From: Escherichia phage S143_2
Length of the DNA: 64,000 nucleotides
Reading direction: 5' to 3' (one strand)
Sequence record: MZ189261.1
The position numbers and the translations under genes are program-made. The notes below the pieces were generated by a model. It worked only from the letters and a program-made list of their open reading frames with translations, was not told the origin of the DNA and searched no databases. Every line of letters starts with the position of its first letter. The first letter of the stretch is position 1. Of this stretch, positions 1 to 51,618 are shown in pieces.

Positions 1-861
1 CCTATTGTAAATGTTGAATTAACTACAGACCAAATTTATGATTGTATTTCACGAGCGTTAGAACTTTATGGCGAATACCATTTTGACGGGTTGAATAAAG
101 GTTTCCATGTATTTTTTGTTGATGACGAAGAAAAATACCGTCACGGCGTATTTGATATGCGTGGTTCTAACGTATTTGCTGTAACAAGAATTATAAGAAC
201 AAATGTTGGCTCTATTACTTCAATGGATGGTAATGCAACTTATCCATGGTTCACTGATTTCCTTTTAGGAATGGCCGGTGTTTCAGGTGGTATGGGTAGT
301 AATTGTGGTAAATTCTACGGCCCGAACGCTTTTGGCGCTGACCTCGGGTATTATTCTCAATTAGTATCTTATATGGGTATGCTTCAAGATATGATTGCTC
401 CTCTTCCAGATTTTTGGTTTAACTCTGCAAACGAGCAATTAAAAGTAATGGGTAACTTTAGACAGAAAGATGTCATTATCGTTGAATCATATGTTCGCTC
501 TTATATCGAGACCCATAAGATGGTAGGAAATACAGTAGGGTACGGTCAGGTCGGTCCTCGTGATTCATGGTCTATTTCTGAACGTTATGATAATCCAGAC
601 CATAATTTGGTCGGACGTCGAGTTGGTGAAGATCCTGCAACTAAACAAGGCGCATATAACAACCGCTGGGTTAAAGATTATGCAACTGCATTAGCTAAAG
701 AGCTTAATGGACAAATTCTTGCTAAACATCAAGGTATGATGTTACCGGGTGGCGTCACTGTTGATGGTGTTCGATTAATTGAAGAAGCTCGTTTAGAGAA
801 AGAAGCTTTACGAGAAGAGTTATATTTACTGGACCCTCCTGCAGGTATTTTGGTAGGTTAA
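1..861 (+). CDS. 13: Neck protein gp13 (5'-truncated by window edge)
   Basis: Frame 1 open from base 1 ([38 protein letters not shown]...) to stop at 859-861; matches T4 gp13 C-terminal region as recalled; followed by gene 14. Confidence 0.88.
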
Positions 862-862
862 T

Positions 863-1498
863 ATGGCAACATACTACAGATTGTATATTACAACATTTGA
901 AACATCCACCGGTATAAAGATTTATGGTGGTAAACACAAATCAGTTTACGAAGACCCTTCAAAAGACCCTTATACTGGGTCTGGTACCTTTATACGAAGG
1001 GCCAAAAGAAAATACGGTCCGTCTTGTATAAAAGAAATTATATGGTCTAAGCCATTTGAATCTAAAGCTCTAATGGATGAAGCTGAAGAGTTACTGGTAG
1101 ATGAATTATCCATTTTAGAAAATTGCGCAAATCTTGTTAAAGGTGGTGCAGGCGGAAGGTCGTATATTAACCCAGAAGATAATCCATCTATAGGACAAAA
1201 ACGTTCAGCCCAATCTAAAAAGAAAATGTCTGACGCCGCAAAATCAAGAAAATGGACTGAAGAAGGGTTAAGAAAACGTAAAGAATCTACAGCAAGAATG
1301 TGGAAAGATTTCAAACATAGACATCCTGATTTTTCTGGTTCAAAAAATCCAGCAGCTCGAAAAGTTAGTGTAAATGGTAAAATATTTAACACCTGCAAAG
1401 AATGTGGTGAAGAATTTAATATCACATCAAGCGCGGTTATAGGCCGATGCAAAAACAACAAACCTAAATGGGCAGGATGGAATTATGTCGACGTATAA
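863..1498 (+). CDS. Seg-like GIY-YIG homing endonuclease (putative), inserted between genes 13 and 14
   Basis: 211-aa ORF; N-terminal YRLY-x11-IYGG spacing like GIY-x10-11-YIG, later [16 protein letters not shown] resembling the conserved Glu/Asn region of I-TevI; C-terminal CKECG...C zinc-finger-like; starts 2 nt after gp13 stop and overlaps gp14 start by 14 nt. Confidence 0.55.
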
Positions 1499-2249
1499 TT
1501 CAAATTTATTTGCAAAGTTAGAAAACCGAGAAGGCTATTCTAAAACTAATGAAACCGAGATTTTAAACAAATACGTGAACTTCAACAAATACGAAAATAG
1601 TCAGACATTAGCCGATGTTCTAGTGGCAGAAAGCATACAGATGCGCGGTATTGAATGTTTTTATGTTCCACGTGAATATGTTGCCGTGGACCTTATCTTT
1701 GGTGAGGACCTTAAAAATAAATTTACTAAAGCATGGAAATTTGCTGCATATCTGAACTCTTTTGAAGGTTATGAAGGAGCGAAATCGTTCTTCAGCAACT
1801 TCGGAATGCAAGTTCAAGACGAAGTTACATTATCTATTAACCCAGGTCTTTTCAAACACCAGGTCAACAATCAGGAGCCCAAGGAAGGTGATTTAATATA
1901 CTTCCCAATGGACAACAGTTTGTTTGAGATTAACTGGGTTGAACCATATGACCCATTCTATCAAGTAGGTAAAAATGCGATTCGTAAAATTACTGCAGGC
2001 AAGTTTATTTACTCTGGCGAAGAAATCAATCCGGTGCTTCAGAAAAATGAAGGTATCAATATACCTGAATTTAGTGACTTGGAACTTAACCCTGTTAGAA
2101 ATCTTGACGGTATCCATGACATTAATATCGATGAATATTCTGAAGTTGAGCAAATCAATTCAGAGGCAAGTGAATATGTTGAGCCGTATGTAGTAGTTAA
2201 CAACCGTGGTAGACAAAATTCACCATTTGACGATGGGTTTATGAATTAA
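1485..2249 (+). CDS. 14: Neck protein gp14
   Basis: 254-aa ORF ([28 protein letters not shown]...); size and sequence match T4 gp14 as recalled. Confidence 0.88.
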
Positions 2250-2301
2250 TAAATAGATAAGATAAAGCAAACACCGGTCGAAAGGCCGGTTAGGAGAAAT
2301 G

Positions 2302-3123
2302 ATGTTTGGTTATTTTTACAACTCGTCGTTCAGGCGATATATCACAATGATGGGCGATTTGTTTTCAAATATCCAAGTTAACCGTCAATTGTCTACAGGC
2401 AATAAATTAATTAGAGTTCCTATTACGTACGCATCTAAAGAGCACTTTATGATGAAACTTAATAAATGGACCTCTATAAACTCACAAGAAGATGTGGCTA
2501 AAGTCGAAACTATTCTACCACGTATAAATCTCCAAATGGTAGATTTCGTTTATAACCCAACGTTTAAAACGAATATATTGAATAACTCTCTTTTGAGTAA
2601 ATCGACTAAGGATATTGTAGACCAATACAACCCATCACCAATTAAAATGATTTTTGAACTGAGCATCTTTACTCGTTATGAAGATGATATGTTCCAAATC
2701 GTTGAGCAAATTATTCCATATTTTCAGCCGCATTTTAATACGACTATGATTGAGCAATATGGGCAGGATATTCCATTTGAAAGGGATATTAAAGTCGTAT
2801 GGATGGCAGCATCAATGGATGAACAAATAGACGGTGATAATTTATCTCGTCGACGTTTAGAGTGGTCATTAACATTTGAAGTAAATGGATGGATGTATCC
2901 TCCGGTAGGCGCAGCAGAAGGCCTTATTAAAACGACTTATCTTGATTTTCATGCTAATGAACGAGACCTTCAATCAGCCGCCAGCGTTTTTGAATCAGTT
3001 GATACAGAAATTAAACCGAGAGACGTTGAAGCACAAGATTGGAATGGCGAAGTTGAACAAACTTATACTCATGATATTCCAATCCCGACTCCACCAACCC
3101 CTCCTGGTCCTAGAAAACAATAA
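2302..3123 (+). CDS. 15: Tail sheath stabiliser / tail completion protein gp15
   Basis: MFGYFYNSSFRRY... matches T4 gp15; second ATG chosen because AGGAG is 5 nt upstream of it. Confidence 0.88.
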   Translation: MFGYFYNSSFRRYITMMGDLFSNIQVNRQLSTGNKLIRVPITYASKEHFMMKLNKWTSINSQEDVAKVETILPRINLQMVDFVYNPTFKTNILNNSLLSKSTKDIVDQYNPSPIKMIFELSIFTRYEDDMFQIVEQIIPYFQPHFNTTMIEQYGQDIPFERDIKVVWMAASMDEQIDGDNLSRRRLEWSLTFEVNGWMYPPVGAAEGLIKTTYLDFHANERDLQSAASVFESVDTEIKPRDVEAQDWNGEVEQTYTHDIPIPTPPTPPGPRKQ

Positions 3124-5449
<2,326 letters not shown>

Positions 5450-38011: not shown

Positions 38012-38582
38012 AAAAGTTTCGGATTTGTTCCCAATTCAGAGAACGAAGATTATTACGAGAGTACTGAATTACTTCAATACCGGCTTGTTTTAGAATGTCT
38101 GCCCAATTTTCAGGAGATCTGTCATATAATTCTGCGTATACAACCTTTTTAATACCTGACTGCGTAATAGCTTTAGTGCAATCAGGACATGGAGAAAGCG
38201 TCGTATATAACGTAGCACCTTCAATAGAATTACCTTTACGAGCTGCAAACAAAATTGCATTCAATTCTGCATGGATTTCATTATTAGCAGACCATGCACT
38301 ATGAGCGGCCCGATGTTCTTTAGCCAAAACAAAATTATCTGCCCGTCCAAATGCTGTAGTGCCTTCTTTATGTCCAGCAACGATGACCGGACTTGGTTTA
38401 TTCTTCAACCAACCGTTTTCGGATGCATGTTCGCAACAGTTTGTACCACCTGAAGGAGAGCCATTATAACCTGTAGAAATAATGCGTCCATCTTTTTCAA
38501 TGACTGCGCCAACTTTCCATGAACAACATTTTGATTCTTGAGAAATCAGATATGCAATCTGAAGGTATGTGCTAGCTTTCAT
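38001..38582 (-). CDS. cd: dCMP deaminase
   Basis: 193 aa as in T4 Cd; zinc-binding HAELNAI and SPCPDC motifs. Confidence 0.9.
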   Translation of the reverse strand: MKASTYLQIAYLISQESKCCSWKVGAVIEKDGRIISTGYNGSPSGGTNCCEHASENGWLKNKPSPVIVAGHKEGTTAFGRADNFVLAKEHRAAHSAWSANNEIHAELNAILFAARKGNSIEGATLYTTLSPCPDCTKAITQSGIKKVVYAELYDRSPENWADILKQAGIEVIQYSRNNLRSLNWEQIRNFCGE

Positions 38583-39574
38583 TATTGAACCTTATTAATA
38601 TAAGTTAACAGCTCTTTAGTTTGTTCCCAACTGATGCACGCATCGGTAATGGAAACGCCATAGGACATATTATCAGAAATTTTTTGATTTCCTTCATGTA
38701 GGAATGATTCTATCATAATTCCTTTGACCAAATCATTAGCTGCTAAATTTTTACCAATACCAATTTGATTGCTATAATACCCATCAGCGTTTGCGTGGCT
38801 ACAGTCAACCATTACATAATGATTCAGACCTAATGCACTTGCTTTGTTAGAAGCTTCTTGAATATCAGAAGAATGATAGTTCGGGCCGTTAGTCCCGCCA
38901 CGCAATACGATATGCGTATTCTGATTACCTTCAGCTTCAACAATGCCTACAGTACCATCGACGTCCATACCCATATACCGATGAGGCCAGGCGGCACTAT
39001 ACATCGCGTCTGTAGCTACTTTAATAGAACCATTGGTTGCGTTCTTGAAGCCTACGCACATCGGTAGACCTGAAGCAATTTCACGATGTGTCTGACTTTC
39101 AGTCGTACGGGCGCCAATAGCAACCCATGAGAAAATACCAGAAAGATACTTAATCGTGAATGGGTCTAATACTTCAGTTGCTAATGGAAGTCCCATACGT
39201 AGAAGTTTACGACACAATGTTCGTGCAACTATAAGACCGTGGTTCATATCAAAACTTCCGTCAAGATATGGATCATTTACAAGACCTTTCCAACCTACGG
39301 TAGTTCGAGGCTTTTCAAAATAAACGCGCATCACTAACAGAACATTAGGAAGACGAGTTTGAAGTTCAGCCAGACGTTTGCCGTATTCAACAGCAGCAAT
39401 AGGGTCATGAATTGAACAAGGACCTACAACAATAAGTTTGCGTGGGTCTTCACCGTTCATAATCGAATTAACTTGTTCGCGATGAGAAGCCACTTGTGAT
39501 GCGTAAGCTTCCGACAAAGGAATAATCTCAGCCAGTTCTTTTGGAGAAATAAGTTTTCTGACGACAGGTAACAT
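38582..39574 (-). CDS. 3-deoxy-D-arabino-heptulosonate-7-phosphate (DAHP) synthase, class I (AroG/AroF/AroH-like)
   Basis: 330 aa; LIVVGPCSIHDP, VMRVYFEKPRTTVGWKGL, AIGARTTESQ, DCSHANA, MIESFLHEGNQ and SITDACISW blocks align to E. coli AroG/AroH as recalled, including the four metal-ligand positions (Cys, His, Glu, Asp). Confidence 0.88.
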   Translation of the reverse strand: MLPVVRKLISPKELAEIIPLSEAYASQVASHREQVNSIMNGEDPRKLIVVGPCSIHDPIAAVEYGKRLAELQTRLPNVLLVMRVYFEKPRTTVGWKGLVNDPYLDGSFDMNHGLIVARTLCRKLLRMGLPLATEVLDPFTIKYLSGIFSWVAIGARTTESQTHREIASGLPMCVGFKNATNGSIKVATDAMYSAAWPHRYMGMDVDGTVGIVEAEGNQNTHIVLRGGTNGPNYHSSDIQEASNKASALGLNHYVMVDCSHANADGYYSNQIGIGKNLAANDLVKGIMIESFLHEGNQKISDNMSYGVSITDACISWEQTKELLTYINKVQ

Positions 39575-44674: not shown

Positions 44675-44704
44675 ATTGTACCACAATCCTTGTGGCATGT
44701 AAAC
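44675..44704 (-). promoter_or_regulatory. Early promoter GTTTAC-N18-TACAAT with inverted repeat CCACAATCCTTGTGG in spacer
   Basis: On - strand GTTTACATGCCACAAGGATTGTGGTACAAT, about 25 nt upstream of rnlA ATG. Confidence 0.45.
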
Positions 44705-45114
44705 TACTTTTTCTTATGTTGGATATTCCAAGGCGGGTTGAACTTTTTGATAAAAAGCGGTTCTTCAAGGTCCATTGTTGCGATGGTCATTGAACCAAGT
44801 TCGTTGGTGACTGAAAGGTCAAAACATTGGCGGGCCCAGAATTCAACCTTTTTGCCTTGCATTAAGGCATCCAAAATCATAAGTGATTTTCTTGAATCTG
44901 AAGTCTGGTCTTTTCGATTTATGGCTGTTCGATAATAGTTAATGCGTTTCTTTAAATTCTTGGTTTTACCAATATACACAAGTTCGTCATCTATAGCAAT
45001 AGCGTATATGACATTTTTCTTATTAGGGACATCAACTGTTTTAATTGTTGCATCTTCTAATAGCTCCAATTCTGTATATTTAATAAAGGAATATTCGGCG
45101 GCAATATCTTTCAT
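44704..45114 (-). CDS. denA: Endonuclease II (DenA), GIY-YIG family
   Basis: 136 aa as in T4 DenA; VYIGKTKNLKKRINYY GIY-YIG-type motif; position between rnlA and nrdB. Confidence 0.88.
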   Translation of the reverse strand: MKDIAAEYSFIKYTELELLEDATIKTVDVPNKKNVIYAIAIDDELVYIGKTKNLKKRINYYRTAINRKDQTSDSRKSLMILDALMQGKKVEFWARQCFDLSVTNELGSMTIATMDLEEPLFIKKFNPPWNIQHKKK

Positions 45115-51336: not shown

Positions 51337-51588
51337 TCATTTGTTGATGTGTTGTAATAAAGATTCTGCAAACATCTCATATGATTCCAGGTGTTCTTCT
51401 TTAATGCGAACTGCATGATTATCACCCGAAGAATAGAACATCTGTACGATAAGAGCTTCGTAATCAGACGAAATACATGCTACGTTTTCCGGCTTCAGGC
51501 ATTCATTGTATGTCGCAACTGGGTCAGTGAAAGCTGCAACGTTTTTGCTACCGCAGTAATCCATACTTCTTTGAATAATAAAAATCAT
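51337..51588 (-). CDS. Hypothetical protein (83 aa)
   Basis: ORF with early promoter and SD upstream. Confidence 0.5.
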   Translation of the reverse strand: MIFIIQRSMDYCGSKNVAAFTDPVATYNECLKPENVACISSDYEALIVQMFYSSGDNHAVRIKEEHLESYEMFAESLLQHINK

Positions 51589-51618
51589 TTTATTTTCCTC
51601 TCATTTGTTGATAAGTCT

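Follow-up and report, generated by a model that had tools for sequence, protein, structure and literature searches.

Genes 13 and 14, which encode neck proteins, are adjacent in phage T4, where a single nucleotide and no ORF separates them. In the window analysed here, a stretch of 64,000 nucleotides from Escherichia phage S143_2 (MZ189261.1), a further gene is found between the same two genes. This raises the questions of what the gene encodes, how it came to lie at this junction and whether its product is active. The sequence-only reading of this DNA had proposed a Seg-like GIY-YIG homing endonuclease, and this proposal is borne out by homology to T4 SegC, by invariant catalytic residues, by a sporadic distribution among related phages and by the absence of the gene from T4. 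The assignment of positions 863 to 1498 to a free-standing Seg-type GIY-YIG homing endonuclease gene of the T4 Seg/I-TevI branch, in the following called seg, is thus supported.

The window comes from a T4-like phage of the RB69 group (genus Mosigvirus), and over bases 1-2400 it shares 99.6% identity with Escherichia phage moskry and 98-99.5% with eleven other records. It starts within gene 13, whose TAA stop codon occupies positions 859-861 and is followed by a single spacer base (862) and the seg ATG at 863. The seg stop codon is found at 1496-1498 and the gene 14 ATG, at 1485, is located inside seg, which creates an overlap of 14 nt. These coordinates (Table 1) confirm the proposed ORF of 211 amino acids that starts 2 nt past the gp13 stop and overlaps the start of gp14, and the adjacency of genes 13 and 14 in T4 had also been stated correctly. 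The insert-free Mosigvirus allele shows the same arrangement as T4, with a 1-nt spacer and no ORF. A chance reading frame does not account for seg, because the protein matches PHROG_314 ('homing endonuclease') over its whole length (E 2.6e-37) and has 12 full-length homologues (53-100% identity) and approx. 7,100 profile relatives. A second seg copy was not found in the window, where tblastn returned a weak match at 51526..51612 (E 0.93).

Table 1. Features at the junction of genes 13 and 14; positions refer to the window.
Feature	Position	Strand	Evidence and remarks
gp13 (neck gene 13, head-tail adaptor), 3' part	1..861	+	frame open to 861; phrog_211 match; annotated as gp13 in phage moskry
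seg, Seg-type GIY-YIG homing endonuclease gene, 211 aa	863..1498	+	PHROG_314; T4 SegC homology; annotations in 12 phage records
seg start, ATGGCAACATA, encodes M-A-T-Y	863..873	+	10/11 nt identical to gene 14 start of insert-free alleles
catalytic GIY-YIG domain, residues 1 to ~95	863..1147	+	Y8, Y21-G22-G23, H25, D35-P-Y37-x-G39-S-G41, E75, N90, G94-G95
NUMOD3-like linker motif, residues 105-123	1175..1231	+	PF07460 E 0.0063 (sub-threshold); NUMOD3 of T4 SegC at the aligned position above threshold
I-TevI-type helix-turn-helix, residues 159-204	1337..1474	+	PF20987 E 1e-4 (below Pfam cut-off); 1i3j matches
replacement gene 14 initiation region in the last seg codons (W-A-G-W-N-Y)	1471..1487	+	Shine-Dalgarno-like AGGA 1474-1477, 7-nt spacer, ATG 1485
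neck gene 14 (head closure protein), 254 aa	1485..2249	+	PF11649, E 2e-127
recoded 5' gene 14 patch, travels with seg	1488..1532	+	16 mismatches to empty allele within 48 nt

Conservation and modelling confidence are highest in the N-terminal domain of the Seg protein, which displays the alpha/beta fold of GIY-YIG domains. The motifs that had been read from the sequence are present: Y5-R-L-Y8 is separated by 11 residues from I20-Y-G-G23, and a block extending from E75 to N90 follows downstream. The GIY and YIG motifs correspond to R6-L7-Y8 and Y21-G22-G23, and the spacer between them comprises 12 residues, compared with 10 in I-TevI. Residues Y8, Y21, G23, Y37, G39, G41, E75, N90, G94 and G95 are invariant among 41 diverse relatives. 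BLASTP aligned residues 4-197 collinearly with residues 8-190 of T4 SegC, a Seg protein characterised by experiment, at 33% identity (E 2e-16; tblastn E 4e-9). The hhalign match to I-TevI is weak (E 0.095), and its register places Y21 on Y17, E75 on E75 and N90 on N90. A clear counterpart of the catalytic Arg27 of I-TevI was not found: in this register no Arg of the Seg protein is aligned with it, and the family is three residues shorter than I-TevI at F24-K26, immediately before Arg27, with a conserved D-P-Y-x-G-S-G loop further downstream.

Curated domain models did not recognise the catalytic domain of this protein directly. PF01541 and PF19835 gave no match at E <= 10, including for residues 1-96 alone, and a GIY-YIG match was likewise absent from NCBIfam and Pfam searches with the whole protein and with residues 1-96. 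Searches of PDB sequences by phmmer and with profiles retrieved only the I-TevI DNA-binding domain, and a GIY-YIG domain was not retrieved by Foldseek. In contrast to the window protein, which falls short of both Pfam models, T4 SegC passes the cut-off of PF19835 (SegE_GIY-YIG; 26.4 versus 25). The same model is matched by 6 of the 41 relatives, and PF01541 by one of them. The outcome that had been named as refuting, the absence of a significant GIY-YIG domain match, thus formally occurs with Pfam, where neither PF01541 nor PF19835 matches directly; the protein is connected to the GIY-YIG family by the transitive link via SegC and the relatives and by structural evidence.

Beyond the catalytic domain, the protein contains a NUMOD3-like linker motif and an I-TevI-type helix-turn-helix, and both elements, NUMOD3 and the I-TevI helix-turn-helix, are found at the corresponding positions of T4 SegC. 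The C-terminal segment is modelled as strand-strand-helix-helix-strand and was matched to PDB 1i3j with an E value of 0.12 for the single sequence and of 2.7e-5 for the family profile, and by Foldseek with a probability of 1.0. A putative C-terminal zinc finger, which the sequence-only reading had suggested, was rejected. The protein contains cysteines at positions 55, 88, 178, 181 and 196. Only the last three are C-terminal, whereas a zinc finger of the I-TevI type has four conserved Cys/His ligands, and of these three only C181 is invariant: among 11 close homologues, 10 have G or L in place of C178 and 7 have I in place of C196. The region that contains the three cysteines corresponds to the helix-turn-helix.

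T4 SegC and the window protein share a D-x-Y-x-G-S-G loop, a His four residues past the YIG tyrosine, NUMOD3 at approx. residues 105-124 and the C-terminal helix-turn-helix. However, T4 segC resides at the locus 5.1/5.3 (between 5.1 and 5.4) and the window gene at 13/14, which implies a different target. Because the two proteins are only 33% identical and their genes occupy different loci, the window gene is not a segC orthologue and represents a paralogous lineage; the name 'segC', which GenBank records use for relatives, is a similarity label. I-TevI is intron-encoded, its linker includes a zinc finger and its helix alpha-1 contains Arg27, whereas the window protein is free-standing, lacks conserved zinc ligands and has the longer GIY...YIG spacer described above. 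The published T4 seg loci do not include the 13/14 junction (PMC2988022), in line with the earlier remark that this insertion site is not a seg locus of T4, and T4 has no ORF there. Among T4 relatives, the junction is nevertheless a known seg locus, with a gene annotated 'segC' in Phi1.

The identity of seg is already known. The gene is annotated in 12 Mosigvirus records under the names 'homing endonuclease', 'GIY-YIG endonuclease' or 'putative endonuclease', and related genes at 13/14 have been annotated since 2007-2010. A literature search for an experimental study or a target description of a 13/14 Seg enzyme retrieved nothing beyond the mention of the Phi1 annotation. The annotation value of our analysis is therefore small: the label is already correct in a dozen public Mosigvirus genomes and the 13/14 Seg of Phi1 was reported in 2010.

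How the gene is embedded between its neighbours becomes apparent when the 13/14 junction is aligned with T4, which lacks the ORF, and with relatives. The alignment defines a net insert of 622 bp (863-1484) in comparison with the empty alleles of KAW3E185 and F27. The left junction can only be placed to 862-874, because ATGGCAACATA matches the gene 14 start at 10 of 11 positions. As a consequence of its position, seg occupies the former gene 14 ribosome-binding site (GGTAGG, 853-858) and start codon, and the last seg codons provide a replacement initiation region for gene 14. The junctions were read in six genomes (window, SP18, MX01, KpF2, phT4A and G5211). In all six, the conserved seg C-terminus, which has the consensus W-x-x-W-x-Y, overlaps the gene 14 ATG and provides a Shine-Dalgarno-like sequence. 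The locus thus adds to the cases in which a homing endonuclease cassette has reorganised the translation signals of an essential neighbour gene.

The insert is present in 12 of approx. 152 Mosigvirus-level records (~8%), and in these 12 records the ORF is intact and 99-100% identical at the amino-acid level. In an alignment of 8 carriers and 6 non-carriers over approx. 14 kb, fixed differences separate the two groups at only three places, namely the junction itself, the patch at 1488-1532 and one gp13 site at position 276; the last ~580 nt of gene 13 contain no fixed difference from insert-free alleles. Divergence among the 8 carriers is 0-0.66% in seg and reaches 3.8% in gp13, and in the carrier SQ17 the gp10-wac module to the left of seg is 25-31% divergent. 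The left flanks of the carriers mogra and phiEC1 group with those of the non-carriers O157tp3 and SA79RD, and by their flanking sequence the carriers as a whole are not a clade. Haplotypes are reassorted immediately to the right of the patch, where carriers have either GATC or ACCT at 1604-1613 and each variant is also found in non-carriers. The low divergence of seg in combination with reassorting flanks therefore indicates that the cassette is younger than, and unlinked from, the genomic backgrounds in which it resides. This is the pattern that homing predicts, and it could also have been generated by a single acquisition followed by ordinary recombination.

The second fixed difference, the patch at the 5' end of gene 14, provides a possible explanation for how carriers coexist with the enzyme. 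The patch is 66.7% identical to the empty allele, compared with 99.2% for the remaining gene 14, and 16 of the 22 mismatches in the gene fall within its first 48 nt (binomial P = 3e-15). Eight of the changed codons are synonymous and four are non-synonymous. The overlap with seg does not enforce these changes, because 12 of the mismatches are located past the seg stop codon. Similar clusters are observed in other genera. When MX01 is compared with QL01 (Dhakavirus), 21 of 32 mismatches fall within the first 90 nt of gene 14 (P = 8e-13), and between G5211 and RB49 (Krischvirus) approx. 54 of 74 mismatches fall within the first 117 nt. By altering the target site, the patch probably shields the carrier from its own enzyme; alternatively, it may mark only part of the target or represent donor sequence that was carried along.

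Homing endonucleases favour conserved sequences in essential genes as targets, and the empty site, GGTAGGTTAATATGGC(A/T)ACTTATGATAAAAATCTTTT, differs very little between T4 and Mosigvirus. The predicted target comprises the 13/14 junction and the first ~50 nt of gene 14, and the predicted immunity determinant consists of the 16 substitutions within 48 nt.

A T4-type late promoter, TATAAATA, does not occur before position 5442, and sigma-70-like sites in positions 1-3200 are not above chance; this also applies to a promoter or terminator of its own for seg. RNA structure is not significant at either start, neither for a hairpin over the seg start (z = +1.05) nor for an 8-bp stem around the gene 14 AUG of the carrier allele (z = -0.98). 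Because late and sigma-70-like promoters were not found, seg is considered a promoter-less cassette. T4 segC, segF and segG are also promoter-less cassettes that are read with their neighbours (Edgell et al., PMC2988022), and segC additionally overlaps these neighbours (PMC2988022). Transcription of seg would occur together with the late neck genes, presumably on a late transcript that spans genes 13 and 14.

During mixed infection with a seg-less relative, the C-terminal domain of the enzyme would bind the 13/14 junction and the 5' end of gene 14 (approx. GGTAGGTTAATATGGCAACTTATGATAAAAATCTTTTCGCC), and a double-strand break would be introduced near the bound site. Recombinational repair from the seg-carrying genome would then copy seg together with the recoded patch, which would protect the new carrier against self-cutting. 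The mechanism proposed here is that of T4 SegF and SegG, where a conserved neighbour gene is cut in the seg-less relative and resistant sequence is co-converted (PMC2330249), and homing with co-conversion of flanking sequence is described for SegB, SegE, SegF and SegG (PMC2330249; PMC2988022). SegF and SegG and their targets in genes 56 and 32 are experimentally demonstrated, whereas the target of the window enzyme in gene 14 is predicted from sequence comparison alone. Likewise, we infer its cleavage, exact target and immunity from sequence; the family assignment, the architecture, the anatomy of the insertion and the population pattern are direct results of the analysis.

With these qualifications, it is probable that seg encodes a Seg-type homing endonuclease that is active or was so until recently. 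The enzyme would cut seg-less relatives at the 13/14 junction or in the 5' part of gene 14, and its gene would be copied together with a protective patch. The junction is flagged as a probable marker-exclusion locus, which would bias recombination in crosses among T4-like phages for phage cocktails or engineering.

Homing endonuclease genes pass through a cycle in which they are expected to degenerate once they are fixed. The window copy could accordingly be decaying or already inactive and be kept at low cost, since its deletion would remove the Shine-Dalgarno sequence and the ATG of gene 14, which are embedded in seg. The missing match to a curated GIY-YIG HMM would fit such a gene, and so would a difference at position 25: in an alignment of 12 close homologues, the window protein reads K-H-K-S, with His at this position, and the remaining 11 sequences read K-R-H-S, with Arg.

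However, the wider family does not favour Arg at this position. Among the 41 relatives, 20 have His and 20 have Arg (H or R in 40 of 41), and His is also present in T4 SegC, which is listed as active (PMC2988022). Inactivation of the window copy by an R25H exchange was therefore dropped as evidence. E75, N90 and both tyrosines are intact, and so is the ORF in all 12 records, with the near-complete amino-acid identity described above. Moreover, seg is far from fixation (~8% of the records) and younger than its flanks, which fits an actively spreading element. We consider a decaying or inactive gene unlikely.

A further possibility is that the protein has lost its nuclease function and serves as a sequence-specific DNA-binding protein, e.g., as a regulator of the late neck genes. 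I-TevI itself also acts as a transcriptional autorepressor, and the PDB entry 1t2t is described as 'DNA-binding domain ... with operator site'. In addition, the strongest direct database matches of the window protein are to its DNA-binding part (PF20987, 1i3j). Such a function is nevertheless very improbable, because conservation is highest in the N-terminal domain, where the GIY-YIG active-site residues are invariant, and because the gene is distributed sporadically and as a cassette, in the manner of a mobile element and not of a regulator.

An endonuclease encoded inside a group I intron, as implied by the product names 'intron-associated endonuclease' and 'putative group I intron endonuclease' in OR062945 and MK327947 and by a sub-threshold match of the C-terminal half to TIGR01453 grpIintron_endo (27.1 bits versus a cut-off of 56), has a negligible probability and is refuted by the gene arrangement: seg is located between two complete genes and not within one, genes 13 and 14 abut with a 1-nt spacer in empty alleles, positions 1-3200 match no Rfam family, introns included, at E <= 1, and the junctions show no significant RNA structure. 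The complete flanking genes, the lack of intron RNA and the sporadic presence also agree with the initial view of a free-standing gene between conserved neck genes, as is typical for seg genes.

Full-length homologues with 53-63% identity occupy the 13/14 junction in four further genera. They are found in SP18 (annotated 'segC' in 2010), VR26 and RZ (Gaprivervirus), in MX01 and vB_EcoM_005 (Dhakavirus), in KpF2 and phT4A (Slopekvirus) and in G5211, G37-3 and Brandy (Krischvirus). Their distribution is sporadic within each genus, e.g., a 13/14 seg is present in 4 of approx. 50 Dhakavirus and in 3 of approx. 60 Krischvirus records. These homologues share with the window gene the family, the site, the overlap with the gene 14 ATG and the linked recoded 5' end of gene 14, and differ from it by an amino-acid divergence of approx. 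40%.

A more distantly related Seg gene is present at the same junction in Phi1. Its 'segC' (phi1p149.1, EF437941) lies at 13/14 and extends over the start of gene 14, and the sister phage RB49 does not have it, in agreement with the published comparison of the two phages (Arbiol et al. 2010, PMC2839356). The Phi1 protein has the same domain order as the window protein and a C-terminal K-W-K-x-x-Y motif, but the two are only 29% identical, which indicates a separate Seg lineage with a common landing site. The codons for the conserved C-terminal W/Y motif, both in Phi1 segC and in the window family, at the same time contain the Shine-Dalgarno sequence and the ATG of gene 14. KFS-EC contains yet another, distantly related Seg enzyme of 271 amino acids at the 13/14 junction.

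We tentatively suggest, as a possibility that at present has the odds against it, that the 13/14 junction serves homing endonucleases throughout the Straboviridae as a conserved landing pad, which has been used by at least three Seg lineages (the window family in five genera, Phi1 'SegC' and the KFS-EC enzyme), and that the translation of gene 14 is coupled to the retention of seg. If true, such an 'expression addiction' would slow the loss of the endonuclease gene after fixation. The copies also differ at the left junction, where the Mosigvirus gene begins on the old gene 14 ATG and the others use a start of their own, 2-19 nt past the gp13 stop.

Within gene 14, next to the cassette that carries seg, the Seg-type GIY-YIG homing endonuclease gene, four linked substitutions (window positions 1604, 1607, 1608 and 1613) form a second small cluster and distinguish two haplotypes, GATC and ACCT. 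Both haplotypes at 1604-1613 occur in Mosigvirus phages that carry seg at the junction of neck genes 13 and 14 (carriers) as well as in those that lack it (non-carriers), and they segregate independently of seg, which places a recombination breakpoint less than about 70 nt from the seg cassette. The stop codon of seg and the AUG of gene 14 are both enclosed by an 8-bp stem (GAAUUAUG / UAUAAUUC; window 1479-1502) in the carrier allele. This stem could link the initiation of gp14 to ribosomes that terminate on seg; in comparison with shuffled sequences it was not significant (z = -0.98).

Seg-type endonuclease genes are also present at the 13/14 junction of the Krischvirus phages KFS-EC (locus L025) and Phi1 (locus L027), and their kinship to the window gene is distant. 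The 13/14 junction looks like a recurrent landing site for genes of this type.

Seg-type genes in the Krischvirus loci and two further ORFs of the window
Feature	Location	Strand	Length (aa)	Characteristics
KFS-EC Seg-type endonuclease gene	L025:923-1738		271	Krischvirus; three NUMOD3 repeats
Phi1 Seg-type endonuclease gene	L027:3148-3732		194	Krischvirus; 29% identity to the window protein
GIY-YIG ORF	window 44704..45114	-	136	adjoins nrdB; Arg follows a canonical GIY-YIG motif (VIYAIAIDDELVYIGKTKNLKKRINYY)
Putative DAHP synthase gene	window 38582..39574	-	330	adjoins the dCMP deaminase gene

The 136-aa ORF of the window is labelled 'GIY-YIG catalytic domain protein' in the closely related Escherichia phage moskry. 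This ORF probably represents the homologue of EndoII/denA, a standard gene rather than a homing endonuclease. Judged by moskry coordinates, the 330-aa ORF appears to correspond to the gene annotated in this phage as phospho-2-dehydro-3-deoxyheptonate aldolase (DAHP synthase). Such a gene would be an unusual auxiliary metabolic gene in a T4-like coliphage.

In vB_EcoM_SQ17, the module from gp9/gp10 to wac (L016:1-5900), which lies to the left of where the window begins, diverges by 25-31% from all 11 other Mosigvirus loci that allowed a comparison, and from gp13 onward the phage is 97-99% identical to the other Mosigvirus loci. The baseplate, short-tail-fibre and fibritin module of SQ17 is a mosaic replacement that ends just upstream of gene 13.

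In Shigella phage SP18 (GQ981382), the gp14 start is annotated at L005:2231, which appears to be 102 nt too far downstream; the ATG at L005:2129 overlaps the end of 'segC' and yields the conserved gp14 N-terminus M-R-N-S-Y-D-A-S-L-F-A-R-L-E that is common to all other phages. Throughout the vB_EcoM_JQD51 stretch (PV204681), the GenBank product names are displaced by one gene, such that the name 'endonuclease' falls on gp13, 'head closure protein' on the seg ORF and 'tail sheath stabilization protein' on gp14, with later genes likewise affected. Phage F2 (MN864145 / NC_054913) is assigned to Tequatrovirus by the taxonomy line of its record; across the 14-kb region compared, however, it shares 98-99% identity with Mosigvirus phages.
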